Below the pieces are notes generated by a model, which was given only the letters and a program-made list of their open reading frames with translations, was not told the origin of the DNA and made no database searches. Below, one piece after another: positions 575 to 64,000 of a stretch of 64,000 bases of DNA. Both the position numbers and the translations under genes were made by a program. The stretch is from Octopus sinensis (taxonomy: Eukaryota): NCBI RefSeq assembly GCF_006345805.1, contig NC_043005.1, positions 10,292,001 to 10,356,000 on the forward strand, in the 5' to 3' direction. The stretch's first letter is position 1. Each line of letters starts with the position of its first letter.

Positions 575-577
<3 letters not shown>

Positions 578-667
578 TAATCCAAACAAGAAAACAAAAA
601 CAAAAAAACAACAACGCAAGGATGTGGAACAAATAAAGTATTATTGAACGCTCAGGAAAGAAGGGAA
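575..667 (-). mobile_element. Truncated copy of the ~207-bp hammerhead-bearing mini-element (family H1) in (TA)n
   Basis: Closely matches the first ~95 bp of 15498-15705 and 38141-38346 (agttaatccaaacaagaaaac...ctcaggaaagaagggaa). Flanked by TA repeats; ends before the ribozyme. Confidence 0.85.
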
Positions 668-2495: not shown

Positions 2496-2765
2496 TATAT
2501 ATATATTTATAGGTTTATTTCTAGAACCTCAAAGATGAACATGATCATGTACATATATGAATATATATATAAATCTATATGTATCATAAATGTGTGTGTG
2601 TGTGTCATTTTTTATGTGCATAAAATTGTGCATAGAAATAAGAATTTATGTAAATCTGTATTTATATGTACATGTGTATGAGCATGAATGTGTTAATCTG
2701 TGTACATACAAGTGATATGTAAATCAAAAAGAGTTGATGGCAAAAAAAAATAAAACAATAAAATA

Positions 2766-3180
2766 GGCGCAGGAGTGGCTGTGTGGTAAGTAGCTTGCTA
2801 ACCAACCACACGGTTCCGGGTTCAGTCCCACTGCGTGGCATCTTGGGCAAGTGTCTTCTGCTATAGCCTCGGGCCGACCAATGCCTTGTGAGTGGATTTG
2901 GTAGACGGAAACTGAAAGAAGCCTGTCGCATATATGTATATACATATATAAGTGTGTGTGTATAGTTTGTGTGTGTGTGTTTTGTCCCCCTAGCATTGCT
3001 TGACAACCGATGCTGGTGTGTTTACGTCCCCGTCACATAGCGGTTCGGCAAAAGAGACCGATAGAATAAGTACTGGGCTTACAAAGAATAAGTCCCGGGG
3101 TCGATTTGTTCGATTAAAGGCGGTGCTCCAGCATGGCCGCAGTCAAATGACTGAAACAATTAAAAGAGAAAAAAAGAGAA
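2766..3180 (+). mobile_element. tRNA-derived SINE family A with internal (TA)/(TG) microsatellite
   Basis: Head ggcgcaggagtggctgtgtggtaag...ggttcagtccc and 3' ...ccagcatggccgcagtcaaatgactgaaac plus tail. Near-identical copies at 6207, 58783, 63167. Confidence 0.92.
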
Positions 3181-6062: not shown

Positions 6063-6120
<58 letters not shown>

Positions 6121-6170
6121 ATACAGGATTGGTATATATCCTGTATATATATCCTGTAAATATACAGGAT

Positions 6171-6204
<34 letters not shown>

Positions 6205-6206
6205 CA

Positions 6207-6377
6207 GGCGCAGGATTGGCTGTGTGGTAAGTAGCTTGCCTACCAACCACATGGTTCCAGGTTCAGTCCCACTGCGTGGCACCTTGGGCAAGTGTCTTCT
6301 ACTATAGCCTCGGGCCGACCAAAGCCTTGTGAGTGGATTTGGTAGACGGAAGCTGAAAGAAGCCCGTCGTATATATG

Positions 6378-6432
<55 letters not shown>

Positions 6433-6637
6433 TTGTGTGTCTGTGTTTGTCCCCCTAGCATTGCTTGACAACCGATGCTGGTGTGTTTATGTCCCTGTCA
6501 CTTAGCGGTTCGGCAAAAGAGACCGATAGAATAAGTACTGGGATTACAAAGAATAAGTCCCAGGGTCGAGTTGCTCGACTAAAGGCGGTGCTCCAGCATG
6601 GCCGCAGTCAAATGACTGAAACAAGTAAAAAGAGAGA

Positions 6638-10137: not shown

Positions 10138-10407
10138 CCTTCGTCGTATATATGTACATATATATATGCGTGCGTGTGTTTGTGTGTCTGTGTTTGTCCC
10201 CCTAGCATTGCTTGACAACCGATGCTGGTGTGTTTATGTCCCCGTTACTTAGCGGTTCGGCAAAAGAGACCGATAGAATAAGTACTGGGTTTACAAAAGA
10301 AATAAGTCCCGGGGTCGAGTTGCTCGATTAAAAGGCGGTGCTCCAGCATGGCCGCAGTCAAATGACTGAAACAAGTAAAAGAGTAAAAGAGTAAAGAGTA
10401 AAGAGTA
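10138..10407 (+). mobile_element. SINE family A, 3' half
   Basis: Matches the family A body from cgtcgtatata to the (gagtaaaa)n tail. Confidence 0.9.
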
Positions 10408-10721
10408 TTTAAGAACCATCTAACAGATACTAGAAATGCAAATTGGTTGTAAAATCCACAAGATCTTAAAGCGAAACCTTGCTACAGCCATTGTACTTTG
10501 TTCTTTTGAATGATGCCCTCTTGAACGATGCACCCATCAACAACCTCGCTCATTTTATAATTCATTATGGTAAAGTGGTGACCAATTAGTAAGCATATTG
10601 CATAATAATGACTACAAAGTACATCAAGCAATTCATATAGATACAATTATCCAAGTTAGCAACTCTTACTTACTGCACTTGAGAAAATGGATTATCACTG
10701 TTAAAAATCTGAGATATCTGA

Positions 10722-11093
10722 TAAGAAGCTTGCTTCCCAACCACATGGTTCTGGGTTCAGTCCTACTTCATGGCACCTTAGACAAGTGTCTTCTGAAATC
10801 AACCAAAGCCTTGTGAATGGATTTGGTTGACAGAAACTGAAAGAAGCTTGTCATATATATATGTGTGTGTGTGTGTGTATTTGTGTCTGTGCTTGTCCTC
10901 CACCACCACTTGATAACCTGTGTTGGTGTGTTTATGTCTTCATAACCTGGCAGTTTGGTAAAGGAGACTGATCAAATAAGTACCGGTCTTTAAAAAAAGG
11001 AAATAAGTAATAGGATCAATTCATTCAACTAAAAATTCTTCGAGGTGGTGTCTCAGCATGGCTATACAGTCTAATGTCTAAAATAAGTAAAAG
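10722..11093 (+). mobile_element. Older SINE family A copy
   Basis: Diverged, colinear match to family A. Confidence 0.8.
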
Positions 11094-13739
11094 ATGTGTG
11101 TCTTTGTGTATGTATTTGTGAGTATGTGCATGTTCATATTTTCATTCTTTAAAGCATTATTCTTATGTTTGTTATAAACTATGCAACTATAATTCTAAGC
11201 ACAAATGTTAAATTCTTTTGTTTTGTACAGTTTTAAGATATTAAGCAAAATAAATCTCCTAAATACTTTTTATTAATTCATGATTTTCATAAACCTTATA
11301 TTTTAATGTTAGAGTATTCTTCCCTTAATGTATAAATTTTTATTCGTCTATTTTAAGATAATTTTTATGGTAAATTTGTATTTTTAACACTTAACAGATT
11401 ACAGCTGTATTGGCTGATAATATTCTAACTGGTTCCTCTGCAAAGATGCCACTTTCTTTCCGTGTCATGTGTAAATAATCACTTGATGTGTTCTGATAAG
11501 GATTGGCCTACAAAGTGTAAAGTTCTCAGGCTAGATATAAAAGCTCTAGTAATATTTCTTCAAAGATGCCCCAGTTACCTTGATAAATTAAAGAAACCAG
11601 TATCAGAGAAAAAGACAGGTAAAATAGTTGGTCATCACCTAAGGCAATAAAAATGTTCTCACACACCTATCTTTTACAATATTTTATTAAAATATAGGAG
11701 TGAACATTGCTATTTATGATTTCTACTACAGCATAACTATACTATAGAGTTGGCAATGTTGTTACTTCATTAATTCCAGAAGTATCAATGACAAAGCTTG
11801 GTTTAATAAGATATAGCCTGAAACGAAACAGAGCTCATTAGTGGCTCCTTATACCAACTAAATTTTTATATCTTTTCTTGTCATTTAATCATTAGTAGTG
11901 AAATTATTTATTATTTAGTTCCCTATTTGTATTTAAATAAGACTGACTAAAACTACAAATTAAAGGAAGCCTTAGAAAATATAAATTAAAGTAACAATTG
12001 CTGTCTGTTCAGATTTGTTCTTCATTATATTTCTGATCTGAGAAACTAGGGAGCCATATTTTTTAGATCAACATTTCAGTGGTTATAGATTTCTTGATTA
12101 TAATTAATGAAATTTTGTTTTATAATCTCAAGTGAATAAGTATTTAAAATAATGGAAATGTTTCAAACAAATATATATATAAAAATTCATATTTAGATAT
12201 TTTTGATAATGTTTCATTAAATATATGTATTGTTTTTAAAAACACATTTCATTACAGAACATAACTTTTCAATGACTATTCTGTTTGTACTGCTATTAAT
12301 CAGTCATTAGTTTTAATTACTTGCTTAAAGATATTGATAATAAATCTGAAATTCTATTGATTATTGTATCTTTTTTTCACTCCTATAATTTCACTTCAAA
12401 TCTATATTATTTTATTTTCTTTAATTTTATCATGTGTGAAAGATTCAATCAAAAAGCTTAAAGGATCACTTTTGAACAATAATTTTTATTTCATTGTTAT
12501 TACTGCTCTTATCTTTATTATTCCATTCAACATTTACTGGTCTGCAATTTGTACAATTTAGACAAATCTGATTGGCCTCATCCATCATAAGTATTGCTAG
12601 GTGCATCAAGAACTAGAATTCTGTTGCTCAGAATGTCTAAACAGAGCAACAACAATTTGAGTTTTATGGGGTTTTTTTTATATTGCTCAGTAACAAATGT
12701 ATTATATTTTTGGCATTTTGCTGCCAACTGATCATTGCATTTCTTATATAGAAATTTAATTTTCTTGATTTATCTTGTGCAGTCTGACCTTAGATGAAAT
12801 AAAATATATATGCATGCACACATGTGCACACACACACACACATACACACAGACATGTGTATATACAGTCACATGCATGTATCCATACACATACATACATG
12901 CATGCATGCATGCATTCATGCATTGTTTCTTAGCTCCTTTACTTTTTTTATATCATCTTATTGTGACATTGGCACTAGAGAAGTTGTCTATGGTGAACCT
13001 AATGATCTGTTTTACCTTTCATTTCCTTATTCCCTCTTACAACTTGATTTAAAAATAACTTTTTATATTTTGATGTCCTTCAAATCAACAATTGCATTGT
13101 ATGTGTGTGTGTGTTTATAGTTGGTATTTATGTGTGTACTTTTCCCAAATACAGCAAAAGCTCTTCAGAAACTGAGAAACACACCTATTTGGCTGTTTTG
13201 TGTCTGATCTGAACAAACATGCTTATAAAGTTAAAATATTAACCTGTTTAGATAAACTATTTCAACCAAAAAGTATTCTTTGTTAATGAAATTCACAATA
13301 TTTGTATAGAGTATACAAGATCAAGATAATGAAGACACATGTCTTTCATTTTATGACACTTTCAAAAGTTAAAACCTATTAATGTTGATATTTTAATTAG
13401 CTATTTGTTGCTTCATCCACCTAATCTCTTGTTTGTATCATGTTTATATGATAATTTTCTAATTGGCTACATTAGGTACTTTTTTATTTCTTTTTTAAGC
13501 TTTTAATTTTAAGCTTGGAATGAAGTTTGAATGTTTTAATATACTGCAAATGAACTGAGTAGTATAAAGTAGCTCACCAACAAACTCCTACTTCTGGTCC
13601 ATGGACATGCTGTCTCTTCTCCCACCTCCTGACTTTCCCTTTTTCACCCCTCCTGCTCTAGCTTCTGCTTTTTGGAGTTAAACTTGTGTTACCTCCATTC
13701 ACTCACTCATTCACTCATCCCCTCATAAACACATATTGT

Positions 13740-15463: not shown

Positions 15464-15497
<34 letters not shown>

Positions 15498-15498
<1 letters not shown>

Positions 15499-15705
15499 GT
15501 TAATCCAAACAAGAAAACACAAAAAAAACACAGCAACGTGAGGACGTGGAACAAATAAAGTATTATTGGACGCTCAGGAAAGAAGGGAAGAAGGAGGGTT
15601 TAACGTTTCGAGCGGAGCTCTTCGTCGGAAACAAAGGAGAAGGAAAGATCCTGAGAAGGGAAGACAGAGGAAAAAAAATTGCTGGCGGTGCTCACGAGGT
15701 CACAT
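15498..15705 (-). mobile_element. Family H1 mini-element, full unit with intact hammerhead
   Basis: Same two termini as 38141-38346; abuts (TA)n. Confidence 0.85.
15598..15632 (-). ncRNA. Minimal type I hammerhead ribozyme motif (GUU triplet, palindromic stem III)
   Basis: Minus strand reads GUUU-CCGACGA-A-GAGC(UCC)GCUC-GAAA-CG-U-U/AAAC. Stems I and II are perfect; loopless stem III ACGU implies a dimeric fold. Confidence 0.8.
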
Positions 15706-15707
15706 CT

Positions 15708-15733
15708 GTAATAACAGATTTCTTGAAAATTGT

Positions 15734-15827
<94 letters not shown>

Positions 15828-15866
15828 TATATATATGTATACAATTTTTAAGAAATCTGTTTTTAC
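15708..15866. repeat. ~159-bp quasi-palindrome centred on (TA)n
   Basis: Arms gtaataacagatttcttgaaaattgtatacata and tatgtatacaatttttaagaaatctgtttttac match at 31/33. Confidence 0.9.
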
Positions 15867-21175: not shown

Positions 21176-23680
21176 TTTAATAAAACTAACATAAGACAAC
21201 AAGAAAATTTCTGTATGACTGTTTGACCTGCAATAACAACCTAATTCTCTGATATTTTTCTTGAAGTGTGAATAAACTATTTTGTTTCTACACATGCGAT
21301 TTGCATAAACAGATTTCTTGTATCAAATATTCTTTAATAGTATGGAAGAAGTGGAAGATGATGGGCAAAAGGTCATATGGTCATTACATTCTGAGTTCAG
21401 ACCACACTAATACCTGTCAAGTAAAAAAAGGGATATAATTGGCTATACCTGTCCCCTTGAATGGGCACTGTTATGCCTTTGTCAGAAAAGAATATCCCTT
21501 TTAATAATATATATTTACAAAGTAACTTTTCGATATTTAAAATTCCTATCTAAATGTTTGATTTGGATAGATTGGTTGTTAAATAACACTTTATTTACTT
21601 TAAATGAATATCGTTCATTGGTATTTTCTGTATGGTTGTAGGTATTTCTATATGCTTTAATTTTGTTATATTCATGTGTATGTGTGTGTGTGTGTATACA
21701 TGTGTTTATATATACATATATGTATATATAATTTTTTTTAAACATACTGAATTGGATGTTTTACAAGCCTTATCAATGTTAGATTCTTTTATCCTCACTC
21801 ACTTAATTTGAATTTGAATTTTATTACATAATATTTCTTAGTTAATTCTTAACTATTAATCATCAGTCACCATCATCCAATTATTGTCCATCCTATAAAA
21901 AAAAATTAAGCTGACTCTTTCATTGCAGATAGAGCTTTACTCACTTAGCTTTAATCTATCTTTGAGATTCCCATTATATATCCACAGGATGAATATATTT
22001 GAATAAATATATTTAAATTTACAAGCATATATTCAGCTAAATTGTGAATTTTATTGATTTATATAAAACTTGGAAGAAATATTATTGCATGCACGATTAT
22101 ATTGGCTATGTTATTCAATGGAATTTTTTTTTATATGATAGTCACTGAATTTTAAATTAAGATAGAACTCATTTCAAAGATATTTACTTAAAGATTTTTA
22201 TTTAAGAGAGCTAACTGAAAAATTATTCAAAATAGTTTTTTAAAACAAGAATCTACTTTTCAAATTGTTTTGATTTAGTTTTTCATTTTAGTTAAAATTT
22301 CCATATCACACACTTTTAAAGCTCTGTTTCCTCATTCGTAATTCATTATAGAGAAAAAATAGACAACCGATATCTTTCTTGTCAACTAAAACAACGCTGC
22401 TGAGATATTTAATGGCCTTAGATTGAGAAATACTTCTGATGAGTATGTCTGTGGCTTGATCTTTTACTTCATTTAATACAACAACCTGGATGTTGCTTGT
22501 CTTTATCCAAATCTACTTTTTGCCAAAATTTGGGCTGGGCTTCCAATTTGAAGATAACTGCAAACTCAATTTCTTCACTTGTCATAAACACTGCTCTTCT
22601 TCCTCTGGCTAAACCATAAAAATAGCAATAACAGTTACAAGTACTCTTTTAGTTGTAAATGTTCATGTTATGAACTTTCAGAGATACAAACAAGCTTGCT
22701 TGCAAATGCAAATTTTGAACACTGCACCTGTTTGGAAGTTCAACTACGACATAACAGATGGATTTAGCTCCTCATAATCACCTTGTAAATACATTTCTTG
22801 TCATTTTGTGCAATGTCATGCTTATCATATATTGTTATTTGTGGTTTTTACAAATAAATTTTCAATCACCCTAAAATATCTTAGAAGCTTTAGAGTGGAG
22901 CCAGTGATGATGGTGGTAGAAATATTGCAACATTATATTGGAAACCAGGGTGGATATTATAAAGGGAATTGAAAGAAGTGAGAAAATGATAAACAGAACA
23001 GATGTGCTTGGCATGATTTGCTCTACTGGTGCAAAATTTTAAAGAACAAATAGTGTATTATGTAACATCTAAAAGATTCTGTGCCAATATAAATCCATGA
23101 TAATTAGAAAGAAATGAAGCTCAGTGATGAAAGAAATAGAAAAACTGTGTGAACAGATGAGAGCATCAACATAATGATGTCTTAATTACATTCAGAGAAA
23201 GCCATAACTCGTTTTGAAGATTTAAAGGTAAAAAATAGTCAACATGTTGAGGAAGAAATATTTATTGTTGCCTGGTTGATTTTACAGGCTTGTACATAAG
23301 GGCAAGTGATGAAACTGTTAGAGCTAACATGGAAGTGATAGGCAAGTTTCATAAGTTACTATTGGAAATTATTGACAAAAAGGTGTTATTTGTGTTAACT
23401 CTCAGAGTTGATGTTCAATGTCAATAAGATAGAGTTGTAATGGAAAAATTTCTTGACTATACATACACTGAAAGGAAAAATATGTGCCTAACTCCATCTT
23501 CCCTACCAGCAGCATCAGTATTAACAAGCAGGGCAATGCCATGAATAAAGAAAGTATCATAAAATTTTAAGATCTTCTGAAGATCTGATGTTTCATTGTG
23601 ACTATGCAGTCATTTACATACTGATTAATATATGACATACTATTATTTGCTGAAAGTGTAAAGATTATGTAATCTATAAA

Positions 23681-24068
23681 GGTGCGAGTGTGGCTGTGTG
23701 ATAGGAAGTTTGCTTCCAAATGACTAGGCTCCAGGCTCAGTCCCAGTGTGTGGCACCTTGGGAAAGTGTCTTTTATTATAACCTCAGGTCAACCAAAGCC
23801 TTGTAAGTGAATTTGATGGACAGAAATTGAAAGATGTGTGTATATGTGTGTGTGTGTGCCCCCTCTACCACAGCTTGCCAACCAGTGTTAGTGTGTTTAT
23901 TTCCCTGTAACTTAGCAGTTTGGCAAAAGAAACTGATAGAATAATTACCAGGCTTAAAAAATAAGTACTGGGTTGATTCGTTCAACTAGAATTCTTCAAG
24001 GAAGTACCCCAGCATGGCCGCAACCTTATGGTTGAAACAAGTAGAAGAATAAAAAAGTAATAAAAAGA
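23681..24068 (+). mobile_element. Older SINE family A copy
   Basis: ggtgcgagtgtggctgtgtg...cagcatggccgc. Further decayed copies near 20420, 29082, 38550, 61875. Confidence 0.8.
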
Positions 24069-24672
24069 CAAAATTGCATAATTGAACATGCTTGGTACTG
24101 AATAGCAACAAAGTGAACCATCAACTGGCTGCTAATGTATGTTTGTATGTGTGTGTATCCTTTGTTATACAATTTTCTTTATAATTTGCAATTTAACATT
24201 TTGATATTTTTTTTTATCAATTTTTCTTTTTTGTTGAACATTAAAAGATGATGATGATGATGGTGGTGGGAATGACTCTTTGTATTTAGTTAGCTCTTTG
24301 CTTATTGGCAATATAATTTAGAATTTCTGCAATGAAAGAGGCTGGTTTATAACAATGAGATTTTTTTTCTTCTTCTTTGGACCGGACAAATTAGCTGATG
24401 GTAACTTACAAACTGATGATTCATCGTTTAGAATTAATTAACTAGGAAATATGAAATGATGAAATCTAAATTAAGAGGATTTGGATTGGAAAATATAACA
24501 TGGTTGAGTAAAAAAAATAATTAAAATATAATTAAGGTCTATAGATATACTCTGTAGTACATACATAGCATAGAAACAAAACATAGTTAATGCACCAGTA
24601 ATTCATTAATTATAAGTGAGCTAAGTACAAAGATAGGTTCTCTAACATCTCACAAGCATTAGAAAACATTAA

Positions 24673-24948
24673 ATCTATTTATATGGTAACAAAAAATCAA
24701 TTTCCCAGCATGGATCTATATGAAAACAGGAAATCTATTTTTTAGTATGGATCTTTATGAAAACATGAAATCCATTTTCATGTGTGGATCTGCATAAAAA
24801 CAAAAAAATTGTATTCCAGTATGGATCTATATGATAACATAAAATCCATTTTCCACTATGGATCTATATTATAACATGAAATCGATTTTCTTTTATGGAT
24901 CTGCATAAAAATTTGAACTCTGTATATCAGCATGAATCTATAGGAAAA
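24673..24948. repeat. 37-bp minisatellite, ~7.5 units, indel-free phase
   Basis: ATGGATCT-like anchor at 24710, 24747, 24784, 24821, 24858, 24895, 24932. Confidence 0.9.
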
Positions 24949-31368: not shown

Positions 31369-31522
31369 ACACGGCAGTAACTTCCACCTACCGAATTCAA
31401 TCACAAAGCTCCGGTCGGCTTGGGGCTATAGTGGAAGACACCTACCCAAAGTGCCACGCAGTGGGACTGAACCTGAAACCATGTAGCTAGGAAGCAAGCT
31501 CCCTAACCACACAGCCATGCCC
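31369..31522 (-). mobile_element. SINE family A, 5' half
   Basis: Reverse complement of the family A head and core. Confidence 0.85.
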
Positions 31523-38109: not shown

Positions 38110-38140
<31 letters not shown>

Positions 38141-38141
<1 letters not shown>

Positions 38142-38341
38142 GTTAATCCAAACAAGAAAACACAAAAAAAACACAGCAACGTGAGGACGTGGAACAAATA
38201 AAGTATTATTGGACGCTCAGGAAAGAAGGGAAGAAGGAGGGTTTACGTTTCGAGTGGAGCTCTTCGTCGGAAACATAGGAGAAGGAAAGATCCAAAGAAG
38301 GGAAGACAGAGGAAAAAAATCGCTGGCAGTACTCACAAGGT

Positions 38342-38346
<5 letters not shown>
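38141..38346 (-). mobile_element. Family H1 mini-element, full unit; hammerhead (38241-38274) mutated
   Basis: (TA)n on both sides. Relative to the 15598 copy there is a 1-nt loss at the cleavage site and a C-A mismatch in stem II. Confidence 0.85.
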
Positions 38347-38391
<45 letters not shown>

Positions 38392-41632: not shown

Positions 41633-41745
41633 TCTTGTAAATTATGTATAAATTTTACCTTTAAAGGCATTTTTTGATATGTTGGCCATTGATAAAATTT
41701 TTTTCCCGAAAAAAATTTTATCCTATATATATACATATATGCTTG

Positions 41746-41783
<38 letters not shown>

Positions 41784-42014
41784 ACAAGTTAAATTCTTAT
41801 GCCAGATACGCCGAAACAAAAAAATTGTTGATAACCATTAAATTTATGCGTCTCGAAATAAACCGATAGAAATCTCTAAAAAATTCGTTATTACCGTATT
41901 GGTCCAATTTTGGTCCAGTCTTGTAAATTATGTATAAATTTTACCTTTAAAGGCATTTTTTGATTTGTTGGCCATTGATAAAATTTTTTTCCCGAAAAAA
42001 ATTTTATCCTATAT
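41633..42014. mobile_element. Helentron/HINE-like unit with partial tandem copy
   Basis: 96-bp direct repeat (41633-41728, 41919-42014; 1 mismatch) ending in a 32-bp palindrome. 12-bp inverted repeats at 41777-41788 and 41920-41931. Confidence 0.55.
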
Positions 42015-42015
42015 C

Positions 42016-42060
<45 letters not shown>

Positions 42061-42939: not shown

Positions 42940-42957
42940 TATTATTATTATTATTAA

Positions 42958-43395
42958 GGTGGCAAGCTGGCTGAATCGTTGGTATACTAGACAAAGTGCT
43001 TAGCGGCATTTTGTCCGTTATTATGTTCTGAGTTCAAATTCTGCTGACATTGACTTTGCCTTTCATTCTTTTGGGGTTGATAAAATAAGTACCACTTAAA
43101 CACTGGGGCTGATGTAATCAACTATACCCCACCCCCAAATTTCTGGCCTTTAGTAGAACTTATTATTATTATTATTATTATTTTGTGGTGAGCTGGCAGA
43201 ATCATTAGTGAGTCAGACAAAATGCTTGGTGGCATTTCACTGCTTTTACATTTTGAGTTCAAATTCTACTGAGGTCACCTTTGCTTTTCATCCTTTAGGT
43301 ATCAATAGAATAAATACAAGTTGAACACTGGGGTCAATGTAATTGACTTATCCCCTCCCACTGAATTGCTGACCTTCTTGTGTCAAAATTTGGAA
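42958..43395 (+). mobile_element. Two tandem SINE family B copies in (ATT)n
   Basis: Heads at ~42958 and ~43185, each with the Meta-like core. Confidence 0.85.
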
Positions 43396-43949
43396 CAATT
43401 ATTATTATTAATGTTATTATTATTTGTTTTAAAGCATTGTACGTCTCTAGAGACAACTCCGGGAATATTGGATCATTACCAATTTTTACTGGATGAAATT
43501 TTTTCTGTTTTGGATTATTTTGCAAAGAAGACACTTTGAAACATTTGGACATCTATCCCAATACCTGGGATAGGCTAAAGGTCTGTCTTTTAGACATTAT
43601 TTTTTTCCAAAACTTTTCTGTGTGCTTGTGTTTACTCTCTATTCAGTAAGGCTTTCACTACACAAGGAGTTGTAACATGCATCAGTATGAAAGGATGTAG
43701 CTCTGGATATGCTCCCTTTGAAGCAAAAGGATAATAAAATAAATACGAACAAATACTTCAAAAAATGGGAAAATGGCAATGAAATAAACAGATACACTTG
43801 CAAACAATGACAGTCATATTTTAACACCCATAAATACAAATTTGCTCAACATAAGCAAGAGTATTGTCCACAACAAGAACTTGTGTGATATTAATAAAGG
43901 TACTGCCAACAGAACCTTTTCTAGCATTACAAATTGTAAGTTTTAGTAA

Positions 43950-46134: not shown

Positions 46135-46320
46135 GTAAGTCACCTTAGACGGTTAGAAATTAAATCTGACTACATTCTCCCATATGAGTAATAGAGAAAT
46201 GTTTACATTTCTGAAACCTATGTTAACAAAGAAAGATTTAGTGAGTTTTCTAAATAATACTGCCCTAACTTTAGTGATATGACTAGGTTGAATGTTAGCA
46301 GTTGTTACAATGTCACTTAA

Positions 46321-46539
46321 CCCTTTAGTGTTCAGATTATTCTATCAAACATAATGCTTATTGATTCCCATTGATTTGAATTAATCATGCATTATCTCAT
46401 ATCTTCAAGATCTTGATGATGTAATTACTTAATGTAGAATAACATTGTAGGGTAGGTGTGAGAGCCTGGATCTGGTCAGTTTGAACATAAAACAGATTAA
46501 ATATTTTGGCTGGATATGGCCGGTTTAAATACTAAAGGG
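46321..46539. mobile_element. piggyBac-type MITE P1, inverted relative to 1038-1256
   Basis: TTAA TSD on both sides; TIR ccctttagt/actaaaggg. Confidence 0.92.
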
Positions 46540-46554
46540 TTAATGATGTAGCTT

Positions 46555-46760: not shown

Positions 46761-47436
46761 CAGTTAGAGCCACAGTAAATCTGACATCACTAATGAAAAC
46801 TTCATAAAGGCTTGAGTTGATGAGATAACTTGACACATTTGTATAAATGGCTAAAAGTAACAACCTCATATATTCCTCAAAGCCAGTCCCCTACCATCTT
46901 GGAAAATGGTAGAACACATTAGATAATGCAATCCAAGGCACTCCTAAATTGATAGAATGACTAGAGTGGAATGTTTTGATCATAGCTCTGTCTACTTGAT
47001 TAATTTTGACAGAGACTAAACAACCCACTAGCCAACCGGTCAACTTCATAAAGGTTCATTACCATACAGTAATTTATATGAACTTATTATTGCTTTTCAT
47101 GTTGCTGGTATCTGTGTGCTATGAGAAATTAATAAATATCAGTGATTTCTTGACATACAAGCTAAATGATCTCATTGCTATAAAAGCTCTGTGATCTTGT
47201 TTCAATATAAATTCAGAGCTCTCATTGCATGTGAAATCAGGTTTCATCGACAAGTAAGATCAGTGGACTCCTTGTCATATGAAGCCAGAAGTCTTATTTT
47301 CATATAAGCTATTGTCTTTCCATGCTATTGTAACATTTTATTACTGTGCTGGAGAGTGAGGCGTTTACAAGATCAATTTTGCTATTACACATTAACATAT
47401 ATATAATTATGTATATATTTATATATATACATACAT

Positions 47437-47624
47437 ACACACATATATAGGCACACACAAGTAGGTATATTTGTATGTCAGTGTATATAAATGTGTGTGT
47501 GTACACACACACACACACACACACACACATTCACATATATTTATACATAAGCACGCATACATATTACATATACATGTATATTTATGTGTATATAAACATA
47601 TCTATATATGTGTGTAAATGTGTG

Positions 47625-47656
<32 letters not shown>

Positions 47657-47850
47657 TATATAGGCACACACAAGTAGGTATATTTGTATGTTAGTGTATA
47701 TAAATGTGTGTGTGTGTACACACACACACACACACACATTCTCATATATTTATACATAAGCACACATACATATTACATATACATGTATATTTATGTGTAT
47801 ATAAACATATCTATATATATGTGTAAATGTATATATATATATATATATAT
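47437..47850. repeat. Tandem duplication of a ~213-bp microsatellite-rich block
   Basis: taggcacacacaagtaggtatatttgtatg at 47448 and 47661, with colinear downstream sequence. Confidence 0.9.
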
Positions 47851-47852
47851 AA

Positions 47853-47911
47853 CCAGGTGGTGCTATTAAGTTAGACATGGCCTGGTCCAATAATGGCCGA
47901 AACCTATCAAA

Positions 47912-47962
<51 letters not shown>

Positions 47963-48428
47963 CATTGTAACCATTCACTCTTCCAACTGTTGAAATATAT
48001 TGAGCCAGAGTTTCAGGAAGGGTAACAGAGCTTGATGCTCTTCCTGTTGCTAACCCTCACCTGGATAATATTTCTCCAAGGTCAAACAAATTATCAGAGA
48101 ACTAATTGATCTGTAGTTTTCATAAAATCTCTCAGTTGTCTTTTATATTAAATGTTTCTATTTCTTCATGTTTTAAGATACTTTGTTATTAAGTTTGCTT
48201 TAATACAAGATTTTGTTAACTAAAGTGTCTTTAAATTAATGATAATTTAAAATACTCTTCTAAGAAGGAAGTTGACTACAGAGATTTTGCATCTCTGAGA
48301 ACTCACTGCCATTTCTGTTATGTTCAAACTAAGTTGCAAAATGTGTAGTTTTATATAACTTAGATAACTTAGATATGTTTCAACCAAAGATTGGTCCAGG
48401 CCATGTCTAACTTAATAGCACCACCTGA
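47853..48428. mobile_element. Tc1/mariner-like MITE with ~38-bp TIRs
   Basis: caggtggtgctattaagttagacatggcctggtccaat (47854-47891) is inverted at 48390-48427 with 1 mismatch; TA on the right flank. Confidence 0.85.
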
Positions 48429-48448: not shown

Positions 48449-48693
48449 TTAAGTCAAGTTTTGTTCAAGTAGTGAGTTCTTGTTGGGTGAGTTGTATCCA
48501 ATTATGGGTGGCTTATCTGGTATTCTTTGAAGGAATCTATCCAGACTTTGTTTAAAGTTGATGGGATCCTTTTCCTCCTTGATCTCCCTCGGGACAATGT
48601 TAAATAGGGCAGGGCCTGTTGAGGAAAAGAAATTATGTTGCAGTGTACATATATGTTGTGATCTTGAATTGGGCATGGTACGTATGGCCCGTG
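48449..48693 (-). mobile_element. CR1-like LINE ORF2 C-terminal fragment
   Basis: HNFFSSTGPALFNIVPREIK...FKQSLDRFLQRIPDKPPIIGY...NKNSLLE. Confidence 0.8.
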
Positions 48694-48699
48694 GTATAC

Positions 48700-48822
48700 C
48701 TATAATTATATCTAAAAAATGGGTGGTGTTGTTGTAGCCTGAATTTATATTGGAGCTGTATCGAATTATAAATGTAAGGAGGAAGTTATATTTAGGATCT
48801 TTATCAGCGTGATCATCTGTAA
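48700..48822 (-). CDS. Candidate 123-nt phase 1-1 exon (TDDHADKDPKYNFLLTFIIRYSSNINSGYNNTTHFLDIII)
   Basis: tttgttttctgacag| acceptor, ag|gtatac donor, open frame. No family recognised. Confidence 0.3.
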
Positions 48823-49247
48823 CTGTCAGAAAACAAACATACACACACACACAAGGAGAAAGAGAAGAGGAAAGAACTACACATTAGTATAGAAACATTT
48901 AAGGAGGAGAGAACTAACTAGAATTGGGTAATGATAGCAAAAATTTACAGAAAGCAGAAACAACAAAAATCGTGACTGTAAGTTTCAGGTATTACTGATA
49001 CTCTGAGTTGCAATTTATACAAGTTCAGCTTTTGGTATTATTTTACTCTAAACACTCACATGTACATATATACATACACACACACACACACACACACATA
49101 CATACACACATGCAAACACATGTACACACACACACATATGCACATGCATGTATATGTGCACACACACATACATGTACATCACAGCTGAATAGGTTGAATA
49201 CTGACTTAAGTTTCATATTTTGAGTGATCACAATTTATATATATATA

Positions 49248-49478
49248 TATTTCTTTACTACCCACAAGGGGCTAAACACAGAGGGGACAAACAAGGACAG
49301 ACAAACGGATTAAGTCGATTACATCGACCCCAGTGCGTAACTGGTACTTAATTTATCGACCCCGAAAGGATGAAAGGCAAAGTCAACCTCGGCGGAATTT
49401 GAACTCAGAACGTAATGGCAGACAAAATACGGCTACGCATTTCGCCCGGCGTGCTAACGTTTCTGCCAGCTCGCCGCC
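49248..49478 (-). mobile_element. SINE family B, young full-length copy
   Basis: Reverse complement of 2263-2495 with CpGs retained. Confidence 0.92.
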
Positions 49479-49514
49479 TAATTTATATATTTATTTATAT
49501 ATATATTTATTATA

Positions 49515-51021: not shown

Positions 51022-51478
51022 TTTTTTTTATTGCCCACAAGGGGCTGAACATAGAGGGAACAAACAAGGACAGACAAACAGATTAAGTCGATTACATCGA
51101 CCCCAGAGCCTAACTGGTACTTAATTTATCGACCCCGAAAGGATGAAAGGCAAAGTCGACCTCGGCGGAATTTGAACTCAGAATGCAGCAGCGGACGAAA
51201 TAACACAAAGCAATTCGCCCGGCTTGCTAACTAATATTAGTTTCAAATTTTGGCACAGGGCCAGCACTTTTTTTTGAGAGGAGGAGGAAGATGATTACAT
51301 TAATCTGAGTACTTCACTGGTACTATTTCACCAATCCCAAAAGGATGAAAAGCCAAGTCTACCTTGGCAGAACTGGAACTCAGAACATAAAGACAGACAA
51401 AATGCTATTAAGCATTTTGCCAAGCATGTTAACGATTCTGCTGCCTTGCTACTAATGATGATGATGAGGAGGATAATG

Positions 51479-51511
<33 letters not shown>

Positions 51512-51520
51512 TTAATAATG

Positions 51521-51553
<33 letters not shown>

Positions 51554-51758
51554 TAATAATCCTTTCTACTATAAGCACAAGGCCTGAAATTTGGAGGAAG
51601 TGGGTTAGTCAGTTACATCTACCCCAGTGCATAACTGGTACTTATTTAATCGACCCCGAAAGGATGAAAGACAAAGTCAACCTCAGTGGAATTTGAACTC
51701 AGGACATGCCGCTTAGCATTTTGCTCGGCATGCTGACAATTCTGCCAGCTTACTGCCT
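51022..51758 (-). mobile_element. Cluster of three SINE family B copies among (AAT)n
   Basis: Cores aaaggatgaaa(g/a) at ~51140, ~51340, ~51660. Confidence 0.85.
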
Positions 51759-52033
51759 TAATGATAATAACAACAACAACAACTATAATTTCCCCAATTT
51801 TAGAGGTTATTTATAGTCAATCACACTACTACTTTTTTGTTCAATCTCAAAAGGATCAAAAGAAAGAATATCACTTGGAAGGATTTCTGTACACAATGAA
51901 AAAGGACATAGCCAAATATTGTAGAGTATTTAACCATCATTTCTGCTTACCACTATTATTAAGCAAGTTATTTAAAATTCACTATGCTGGTGGGTTGGCA
52001 GGCAAACTGATTAGCAGCATCTTGTCTGTCTTT

Positions 52034-52748: not shown

Positions 52749-52958
52749 GGTTTCAAATTTTGGCACAAGACCAGCAGTTTCAAGGAAGGGCTTCAGTCGA
52801 TTATATTGACTCCAGTGTTCAACTGGTAATTATTTTGACATTGAAAGGATATTAGGCATAGTCAACTTCAGCGGACTTTGAACAAGAACATAAGAATGGA
52901 TGAAACGCTGCTAAGAATTTTGCCCAGCTTGCTAATGATTCTGCCTGCTCACTGCCTT
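52749..52958 (-). mobile_element. SINE family B with 16-bp TSD
   Basis: TSD taattgatacaatatt at 52733-52748 and 52959-52974. Confidence 0.88.
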
Positions 52959-52986
52959 TAATTGATACAATATTAAGACGGAATAA

Positions 52987-53195
52987 GGCAGTGAGCTGGC
53001 AGGAATGTTAGCACGCCAGGCAAAATGCTTAGCAATATTTTGTCTCCCTTTATGTTCTGGGTTCAAATTCTGCCGAGGTCAGTTTTGCCTTTCATCCTTT
53101 TGGGGTCAATAAATTAAGTACCAGTGCATACTGGGGTCAATTTAATTGACTCCAGCCCTCAAAAATTTCAGGCTTTGTGCCTAGAGTAGAAAAGT
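52987..53195 (+). mobile_element. SINE family B, head-to-head with the previous copy
   Basis: ggcagtgagctggcagg head and Meta-like core. Confidence 0.88.
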
Positions 53196-58489: not shown

Positions 58490-59405
58490 AAAGGCCATGC
58501 AGCTGCTTCACATATCATTTGGATTGATGCGGTTAATGTTCATTTCAACATATATAAGTTGGTGTTTGAAAGAAAAATGTGTAGGAAGGGAATTTCAGAA
58601 GATTGCTGTTCAAGGGAGGAAGGATTGGGTAAAATGTGTAGTACTGTGTTTAGGACATGAAACTCAAAAATTAAGAGGGTTGACTGGAGGAGAAAAGATA
58701 GTGGAGTTAGTTCTCCTGAGTGAAGAAGGCATGTCCTTAGTTTATTCAAATAAGCAGAAACTATATGAATAATGAACTAAGAGGCGCAGAAGTGGCTGTG
58801 TGGTAAGTAGCTTGCTTACCAACCACATGGTTCTGTGTTCAGTCCCACTGCGTGGCATCTTGGGCAAGTGTCTTCTACTATAGCCTCAGGCCGACCAAAG
58901 CCTTGTGAGTGGATTTGGTAGACGGAAACTGAAAGAAGCCCGTCACATATATGTATATATATATATATATATGTGCGTGTGTGTTTGTGTGTCTGTGTTT
59001 GTCCCCCTAGCATTGCTTGACAACCGATGCTGGTGTGTTTACGTCCCCATCACTTAGCGGTTCGGCAAAAGAGACTGATAGAATAAGTACTGGGCTTACA
59101 AAGAATAAGTCCCGGGGTCGAGTTGCTCGACTAAAGGCGGTGCTCCAGCATGGCCGCAGTCAAATGACTGAAACAAGTAAAAGAGTAAAAGAGAGAGTAA
59201 GACACAATAAGCACAGAACACTGATTCACAGAATCTGCCTGTGAACCAGTGGTTGATGCTGTTTGGTGTTGAAATTTTGCCAATCTATCAGTTGTGCTTC
59301 TTCTAGATGTAGTCTGAGAGTCTGTGTGTACAACAGTATCAGCTGCAGAATCCCATGGATACGAATAATACTCCACTATGAATCTTACTTGAGTTTTATG
59401 CAACA
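58490..59405 (-). mobile_element. Decayed Jockey/CR1-group LINE 3' fragment, split by a SINE
   Basis: LHKTQVRFIVEYYSYPWDSAA ... QPLVHR ... FTQSFLP*TAIF*NSLPTHIF. Confidence 0.75.
58783..59197 (+). mobile_element. SINE family A, full length
   Basis: Near-identical to other A copies; possible TSD taaga. Confidence 0.92.
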
Positions 59406-62455: not shown

Positions 62456-63166
62456 TCCAGTATTTTCTCATCTTCTTAATGTTCTAAGTTTGAATTTGAA
62501 AAACTATATATTTAAAATTAGCAAGAGTAGGAAAATTAACAATAATGAGCAGACTTGTCTTTCTCGTGTGAAATTTTCTACGATGCTTTTTGATGCATCG
62601 ATTTATCCTCAGTTTGGTTTCCATTGGGAGTTCGAGCCCTTAAGATTATAAAGACATGCAAAATGAATCAACTTAATTTTGTATTGATCAACAAAAAGAT
62701 AATAGCGCAAGTAACATTTATGTGATGGCCTTGAAGGTGGCCGTAGTGATGATGAAGATGGTGTTGGTGTCTGTAATAATATCTAACCTCCCAGATCTGT
62801 AACAGCCATTGGGAAAATTCAAAACCTCTGTGCAAGTGTTATGTTGTGGCCTGAAGCAATAAACTTGGGCAATGTGAGGAATATATAATGAAATCATCGA
62901 TTCTCTTCATCATCACAAGTAATTCAGTTTTTTAAGAAAATCATCATCATCATCATGATTACCATCACCACTACTACCAAAACCTTAATAAATGAAGGAT
63001 AAAACCTCTATGTGGTTTCACAAACTGATAGAAATAACTTCCAATTGTCCTTTAAACCAGCATCTATAATTTTAAAGAAACTACAGCCACATTAAATAAT
63101 GGAGTCCTACCTACAATATTTAAGTTGCTGATAACATATTTAATTCAAGGCGCATTGATAAACATA

Positions 63167-63570
63167 GGCGCAGGAATGGCTGTGTGGTAAGTAGCTTGCT
63201 AACCAGCCACATGGTTCCGGATTCAGTCCCACTGCGTGGCACCTTGGGCAAGTGTCTTCTACTATAGCCTCAGGCCGACCAATGCCTTGTGAGTGGATTT
63301 GGTAGACGGAAACTGAAAGAAGCCCGTCGCATATATGTATATATATATATATATGTGTGTGTGTGTTTGTGTGTCTGTGTTTGTCCCCCTAGCATTGCTT
63401 GACAACCTATGCTGGCGTGTTTATGTCCCTGTCACTTAGCGGTTCAGCAAAAGAGACTGATAGAATAAGTACTGGGCTTACAAAGAATAAGTCCTTGGGT
63501 CTAGTTGCTCGACTAAAGGTGGTGCTCCAGCATGGCCGCAGTCAAATGACTGAAACAAGTAAAAGAGTAA
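63167..63570 (+). mobile_element. SINE family A, full length
   Basis: Near-identical to other A copies. Confidence 0.92.
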
Positions 63571-63762: not shown

Positions 63763-63981
63763 CTTTAGCATTTAAACCGGCCATATCCGGCCAAAAGTAT
63801 TCTGCCTGTTTTATGTTCAAACTGGCCAGATCTGATCTCTCACACCAACCCTACAATATCGTTTTAAAAATTAACAGCTGCCTTATCAAAATCTCAAAGC
63901 TACCAGATAATGCATGATTAATTCAAAGCAATGAGGATGAAAAAGAATTAGTTTTGGTAGAATAATGCGAACACTAAAGGG
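63763..63981. mobile_element. piggyBac-type MITE P1, diverged, left TIR damaged
   Basis: Colinear with 1038-1256; ends ctaaaggg|TTAA. Confidence 0.85.
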
Positions 63982-64000
63982 TTAAATCAGGGCTGATGTG

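Follow-up and report, generated by a model that had tools for sequence, protein, structure and literature searches.

The window analysed here is a 64,000-nt stretch of the Octopus sinensis genome (NC_043005.1, positions 10,292,001 to 10,356,000), and the feature of interest is a 208-nt unit at its positions 15498-15705 (Table 1). The evidence supports the view that this unit is a discrete, high-copy, (TA)n-associated non-coding repeat with a Penelope-type minimal hammerhead motif. Used as a query against the 64-kb window with BLAST and nhmmer, 15498-15705 returned exactly three real copies including itself, which are the three that an earlier note on this DNA had listed. The copy at 38141-38346 is 95.2% identical over 208 nt, and that at 575-667 is 91.4% identical over 93 nt, matching the low-coordinate 92 nt of the query; nothing else in the window scored better than E 0.13. 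A TA run adjoins the low-coordinate end of all three copies, with the same starting base in each, and the high-coordinate end is common to the two long copies, so that both of the shared ends claimed in the earlier note were confirmed. Because TA runs of at least 10 nt, taken with 3-nt margins, make up 1.9% of the window, the location of three out of three copies beside TA is not attributable to chance.

The copies at 575-667 and 38141-38346 are flanked by (TA)n at either end, as would be expected if they had inserted into a pre-existing microsatellite. No ORF starts inside 15498-15705, and no complementary seed of at least 5 nt was found between its terminal 30 nt; a MITE or other DNA transposon was rejected for want of terminal inverted repeats in this comparison. 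We infer that the minus strand is the RNA strand, because it carries the hammerhead, because the truncated copy retains the 3' end of the long ones, and because a repair scar lies at the other end.

Table 1. Positions of the repeat unit, its hammerhead and the adjoining junction in the window
Feature	Position	Strand	Remarks
Full-length unit, 208 nt	15498..15705	-	putative RNA 5' end near 15705, 3' end near 15498
(TA)n run at RNA 3' end, putative priming site	15477..15498	.	from sequence
Second full-length copy	38141..38346	-	(TA)n at 38117-38141 and 38345-38381
5'-truncated copy without hammerhead	575..667	-	(TA)n at 540-573 and 667-687
Minimal type I hammerhead motif	15598..15632	-	stems, core and palindrome read from sequence; consensus in PMC4209133 supplement
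Predicted cleavage site after GUU	15601..15602	-	position 17 is listed as varying to C and A in the family, but not to G
Core position 4	15627	-	C in this copy and the majority of the family; the canonical U is the minority form
Decayed hammerhead	38241..38274	-	stem II change at 38255, 1-nt loss at cut site
Inverted duplicate of target flank, 29/31 nt	15708..15738	-	scar at 5' junction
Interrupted (TA)n array between arms, longest merged TA run in window	15738..15836	.	99 nt
Original target flank, duplicated in inverted form	15836..15866	+	from sequence

Junction scar and other repeats in the window

The picture of insertion at (TA)n needs amending at the far end of copy 15498, which does not lie directly at a TA run: about 32 nt intervene, of which 31 are an inverted duplicate of the flank. 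The segment 15708-15738 is the reverse complement of 15836-15866 (29/31), and a 6-bp hairpin at 15704-15719 overlaps the end of the element by 2 nt. Such inverted arms occur at one of the 39 merged TA runs in the window (score 24; next best, 6), and the two mismatches between the arms argue against an assembly echo. The ~32 nt were also considered as a tail belonging to the family, and this was rejected: family depth is zero by 15714 in four of four public runs, and the segment is inverted target flank. For this scar, known from one locus and the window sequence alone, the simplest history begins with a broken (TA)n end that folded back on itself, used its own flank as template and was finally joined to the 5' end of the new copy; the alternative is that the reverse transcriptase (RT) jumped to the target strand.

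Two other places in the window have comparable arrangements. One is at 6071-6204, where a SINE copy is preceded by TA runs interspersed with short segments that repeat the first letters of that SINE in direct or inverted orientation; this may likewise be a scar of fold-back or abortive priming, here from the insertion of a different retroelement. The other is at 47854-47912, where 60 bp with a TA run on each side repeat in inverted orientation (87%) the segment 48368-48427, 450 bp away, and may also have entered (TA)n by templated insertion; 48368-48427 lies at one end of the LINE-like frame 48449-48883, for which Pfam gave no match.

The window is otherwise rich in repeats. An abundant SINE-like family of ~400 bp with an internal (TA)n/(GT)n tract, which we take to resemble an octopus SINE, is found at 2757-3170, 6198-6636, 10144-10400, 10719-11094, 23672-24074, 31381-31521 (minus strand), 58774-59208 and 63158-63570. 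A second dispersed family occurs in both orientations, with some copies TA-flanked, at 2228-2506, 42957-43396, 49237-49513, 51024-51760 and 52750-53192. There is also a dispersed repeat of ~229 bp at 1032-1260, 46317-46545 (minus strand) and 63763-63986, two copies of which are 96.5% alike, and a local direct duplication of ~100 bp (41633-41760 and 41919-42054) with a TA run ending each copy. The segments 24680-24948 and 47409-47851 comprise a 37-bp unit repeated in tandem at least six times and a tandem duplication of ~209 bp that is rich in microsatellites; a search of both for a hammerhead core found none.

The hammerhead motif

The earlier note had described a type I hammerhead on the minus strand at 15632-15598. 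Its stems I and II, its palindromic ACGU and its predicted cut between 15602 and 15601 all stand; that position 4 of its core is C, away from the canonical sequence, had gone unremarked there. Stem I is GUUU/AAAC and stem II is GAGC/GCUC, the latter closed by a 3-nt loop, UCC; both stems are paired over 4 bp in copy 15498 and in the majority of the family. The elements of the motif run in the order stem I, core CCGACGA, an extra A, stem II, GAA, the palindromic ACGU, and U17 (15602). The core is thus CCGACGA rather than CUGANGA, a U4C change, and lacks the canonical core of the minimal hammerheads of Penelope-like elements (PLEs). The other features of those hammerheads are present: the extra nucleotide between A9 and G10.1, the G10.1-C11.1 pair, GAAA, palindromic 15.2/16.2 without loop 3, and an NUH site (ACGU then U17).

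In the alignment of PMC4209133, the consensus of the metazoan PLE minimal hammerheads is matched everywhere except at U4. Like the motifs described there from PLE terminal repeats (pLTRs), that of the unit has a short stem I, the extra nucleotide after A9 and G10.1-C11.1, together with a palindromic ACGU lacking loop 3, an NUH site, a U-rich leader and an occurrence as dispersed single copies. It differs in having a stem II of just 4 bp with a 3-nt loop, and in that the published consensus has U4 whereas the family of the unit is mostly C4; the core variant given in PMC4209133 is U3-A8.

With any one core mismatch allowed, the motif was matched in none of 5000 dinucleotide shuffles of the element, and three of 100 shuffled windows gave a match to the same descriptor; as the motif was already in view when the descriptor was drawn up, these counts are to be read accordingly. 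In the window itself, 15632-15598 is the sole match, no other hammerhead with a one-mismatch core being found. The motif is intact in one of the three copies, copy 15498. In copy 38141 a C.A mismatch closes stem II and one base is absent at the cut site, and copy 575-667 ends ~11 nt before the cut site, so that it has no hammerhead. The base paired in stem II at 38255 is kept by 81-94% of the family, which also keeps the base lost from copy 38141.

Folding prediction does not return the hammerhead as the minimum-energy structure, in which the core pairs instead with ACGUU (z -0.44; 61 of 200 shuffles were equally stable). A nearest-neighbour model, which ignores tertiary contacts in the core, gave -3.8 kcal/mol for the active monomer versus -6.5 kcal/mol for the best fold, and -5.7 versus -22.5 kcal/mol for the double hammerhead. 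An Rfam search of the window gave 97 matches at E up to 1, all below gathering scores and none of them a hammerhead; most were miRNA models driven by microsatellites, and a CRISPR-repeat match inside the element was judged to be chance.

The family in public sequence runs

Part of the unit is contained in 23 of the 24 public runs listed, from 10 studies and under four organism labels. Seven of the 24 were aligned to the unit: six contig runs (organism labels A-D) and one raw WGS run. The contig runs yielded 3,898-24,292 aligned pieces each, and summed depths on the unit reached millions, compared with tens for single contigs. These values point to a very high copy number, as the earlier note had anticipated from three copies in one window, contig depth being no count of copies and no measure of the share that is full-length. 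The raw run, X21, which has the same species label as the best-matching run, gave four reads in 1,934 million letters and was used in no count; label, filter or sample type may differ. One run whose contigs contain the unit is guessed to be RNA; contigs show neither strand, ends nor level.

Adding 10 nt of TA to the reference as bait at the RNA 3' end allowed the junction to be followed across the family. Depth running into this bait was 55, 57, 53 and 57% in the four runs so examined, with no variants of at least 5% listed in the bait. A fixed 3' end inserted in (TA)n, which is a feature of EN+ pLTRs, is thus found both in the three window copies and in 53-57% of family depth.

At the far end, the two long window copies belong to a minor subfamily, and the commoner subfamily differs at ~7 of the last 26 nt. 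In the minor subfamily, 45-59% of depth continues into TA at this end. The loose-end consensus of the commoner subfamily reaches the same terminal GGTCACA in three of four runs at 38323, as it does in run X1 on the other reference, and then turns into mixed AT-rich sequence; run X4 differs in the last letters of GGTCACA. That the commoner subfamily stops at the same point indicates that the far end is a boundary of the element and not an accident of two sister copies. TA abutment and the common far end are both, then, family-wide in public contigs, in agreement with the claim that insertion sites are associated with (TA)n.

The listings for the six contig runs contain no head-to-tail joint between the 5' and 3' ends, and the loose ends listed beyond either end are AT-rich flank rather than the opposite end, which argues against common tandem arrays. 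The same loose ends, a minority of the total with 381 and 556 further ones beyond the listings, include no optional 30-40-nt 3' tail of the kind found in pLTRs and no common continuation other than TA, such as a partner ORF.

Both core types occur in the family. On the better-matched reference, U4 made up 28, 26 and 24% of depth in three runs, as against changes of 2.4, 3.1 and 0.7% on the partner strand of the same CpG; other CpG sites were changed in 0.3-11%. The disparity between 24-28% and 0.7-3.1% means that U4 marks a subfamily rather than decay, C4 being the majority. The share depends on the reference: on a poorer, decayed one it was 6-12%, a value that is probably too low, since U4 pieces align less well to it. 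At position 17 the variants listed are C (4-25%) and A (3-11%), with no G among them. U4 and C17, both compatible with activity, are the only hammerhead variants to exceed 20% in any run.

The earlier note had proposed, as a check, that the hammerhead core should be more conserved than the flanks. This was not borne out: variants of at least 2% affect 12 of 35 positions inside the hammerhead and 24 of 173 outside it (from 40 of 45 rows). CpG sites account for nine of the 12 variable hammerhead positions, a pattern to be expected of dead copies. Compensatory base-pair changes were not among the variants listed, in tables that are unphased and for a family that is very uniform. Depth is similar to the left and right of the predicted cut site (5.1 versus 4.4 M in X1; 5.0-5.7 versus 6.1-7.1 M in X2), and from the lack of a step there, most copies or templates appear to derive from uncut RNA.

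Origin and copying of the unit

The explanation that we favor, at slightly better than even chances, is that a Penelope-like retrotransposon, probably one of the Neptune type, left the unit behind as a solo pLTR, and that the RNA template of the unit had likely escaped cutting by a ribozyme predicted to be slow. Several properties of PLEs are in line with this. In PAc of Anolis, the enzyme cuts both strands of AT-rich DNA and RT starts inside the RNA; uncut RNA is the main substrate, and the hammerhead cuts only with protein (PMC11167929). The transcription start of Penelope lies inside the pLTR (PMC2377424), pLTRs of ~200 bp, including solo copies, and inverted junction structures are known (PMC3846280), and minimal hammerheads are mostly dispersed single motifs (PMC4209133). 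The step from PAc, a Poseidon, to the family of the unit is an extrapolation.

From Penelope biology, the GIY-YIG nuclease of such an element would cut (TA)n, and its RT would start at a fixed site inside the source RNA, copying from an internal start in the upstream pLTR to the RNA 5' end. Copying to that end would make the length of the unit equal to the distance between transcription start and RT start, so that fixed-length solo units would result with no need for a separate element. Broken (TA)n ends might at times fold back and copy flank before joining the 5' end, as suggested at the one locus described above. The U4C change would slow cleavage, such that C4 sources would yield more full-length units than U4 sources.

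In print, we found U4C for a viroid only; work by Lunse et al. (2016/2017), which reportedly deals with dimer-cleaving variants of PLE hammerheads, may list U4C forms. The natural viroid variant (cited in PMC3088659) has the same core change, but in a full ribozyme with tertiary contacts, unlike the minimal motif of an animal repeat considered here. The change lowers activity in vitro and is viable in a viroid (PMC3088659), and by analogy the U4C motif of the unit is predicted to cleave slowly.

As to the type of PLE, both Neptune and Naiad elements have an insertion bias toward microsatellites (PMC8557442), a likeness shared by the (TA)n-inserted unit. Since Naiads are without canonical hammerheads (PMC8557442), the combination of (TA)n bias and a hammerhead of normal topology points to Neptune rather than Naiad. 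Probe words of the unit were either absent from the Naiad/Chlamys/Hydra sequence file of PMC8557442 or lay in unrelated sequence.

The likeness to solo pLTRs and other EN+ PLE sequences (PMC3846280; PAc, PMC11167929) extends to the ~200-bp length, the fixed 3' end, the AT-rich target, the presence of copies that span the hammerhead site, and inverted junction structures. There are also differences. Both ends of the unit are fixed, it has no internal ORF start, and the optional tail of 30-40 nt is missing from the loose ends listed; and the inverted piece at copy 15498 is target flank rather than element sequence. ORF features of the pLTR type are lacking: unlike Penelope and Poseidon pLTRs, the unit lacks both an ATG beyond its first base and a splice acceptor that is constant across the family. 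An AG at 15652 was considered as a splice acceptor before the hammerhead and set aside as a rare allele, the family having another base there. Inspection of the 48 open frames of the window revealed no RT or GIY-YIG ORF, and a Pfam scan of nine of them gave nothing at cut-off. Pattern scans of metagenome (two), viral (one) and prokaryote genome (one) contigs gave no matches.

A rather unlikely alternative is that the 207-nt unit is a self-propagating, SINE-like non-autonomous element, itself transcribed, either from an internal Pol II promoter or with the TA run ahead of it as a TATA-like signal, and then copied again by a Penelope-like enzyme acting in trans; this was the main reading of the earlier note. 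Its fixed ends, several subfamilies and very many contig pieces would all be as expected, as would the lack of an ORF continuation among the loose ends listed, and the family occurs in the contigs of the run guessed to be RNA, which is no proof of transcription. Non-autonomous PLE derivatives are known (MRC1, PMC8557442), as is pLTR-flanked cargo moved in trans (PMC3846280). However, no promoter was identified in the unit, and PAc RNA needs sequence downstream of the RT start (the first 172 nt of the ORF, for starts at 111-118; PMC11167929), which a solo copy would lack; solo copies would then be dead ends, and for this reason we rank this alternative second. T8 runs at RNA-strand positions 28 and 178 and the lack of an A box speak against a Pol III SINE in particular. 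A tRNA-derived Pol III SINE was rejected on those two features, with just two weak B-like words in mid-element and no tRNA in the window.

RTE-related retroposons target TA, and a short element or tail moved by a microsatellite-targeting LINE outside the Penelope group (RTE, R4/Dong or HERO), merely carrying the hammerhead along, is a further possibility, albeit an improbable one. LINEs of the RTE, R4/Dong and HERO types are active in octopus (PMC13282606, table 1), and no partner ORF was identified. Against this, the motif has the specific signature of minimal PLE hammerheads, and the unit has no poly-A or short tandem tail besides the TA run, which also flanks the 5' side in two of three copies.

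Slightly more improbable again is that the unit is a monomer of a non-LTR retrozyme, spread via self-cleaved circular RNA. Metazoan non-LTR retrozymes (PMC7229834; bioRxiv 10.64898/2026.07.22.740005) are likewise small and non-coding with a type I hammerhead and a proposed PLE origin; the unit falls within their size range of 150-450 bp (PMC7229834), and monomers are common in retrozyme families (bioRxiv 10.64898/2026.07.22.740005). However, none of the three window copies is in tandem, no 5'-to-3' end joint was listed in the six contig runs (contigs showing presence, not absence), the ends are fixed and neither is at the cut site, and retrozymes carry canonical rather than minimal motifs (PMC7229834). 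The earlier note had suggested a non-autonomous, microsatellite-targeting family that is either Penelope-mobilized or retrozyme-like; a (TA)n-associated unit with a Penelope-type motif is the supported part of this proposal, the retrozyme-like part being unsupported in view of the minimal motif and the lack of any tandem copy or joint listed. That the hammerhead likeness is a chance occurrence inside an ordinary repeat is very improbable: the lack of an Rfam match, a stable fold, excess conservation and covariation would fit, but none of 5000 element shuffles matched, the changes that are common in the family either lead toward the canonical core or preserve NUH, and consensus features that were not searched for (the extra A and the palindrome) also match.

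Returning to the solo pLTR explanation, we consider it an unlikely extension that the most prolific sources of the family have been selected for a crippled hammerhead: U4C would leave the RNA leader uncut, to be copied whole into (TA)n, where the adjoining TA run might even act as a TATA-like signal when the next round begins.

In Octopus vulgaris, 190 families of Penelope-like elements together make up 6.8% of the genome (PMC13282606), so that the family is probably present in repeat libraries already, with its ribozyme unnoted. The sequence of the unit was not found in the searched supplements of PMC4209133, PMC8557442 and PMC13282606; the supplement text of PMC4209133 has no match to 'octopus' and no cephalopod entry. 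Among the papers listed on cephalopod hammerhead ribozymes, none describes such an element in its title or the start of its abstract.

The kind of element is already known, and the value of the family is as a test case and for annotation rather than as a new class. Hammerheads are present in most PLE clades, cut poorly in vitro, and are dispensable for insertion in one reconstituted system; a single abundant family in which canonical (U4) and altered (C4) cores occur together offers a direct test of the hammerhead's role. If the reading in which sources are selected for a crippled hammerhead is true, the family would amount to a natural experiment with U4 and C4, showing that Penelope hammerheads limit, not enable, retrotransposition; where transcription starts and where RT starts could then be read straight from the genome through the fixed length of the unit.
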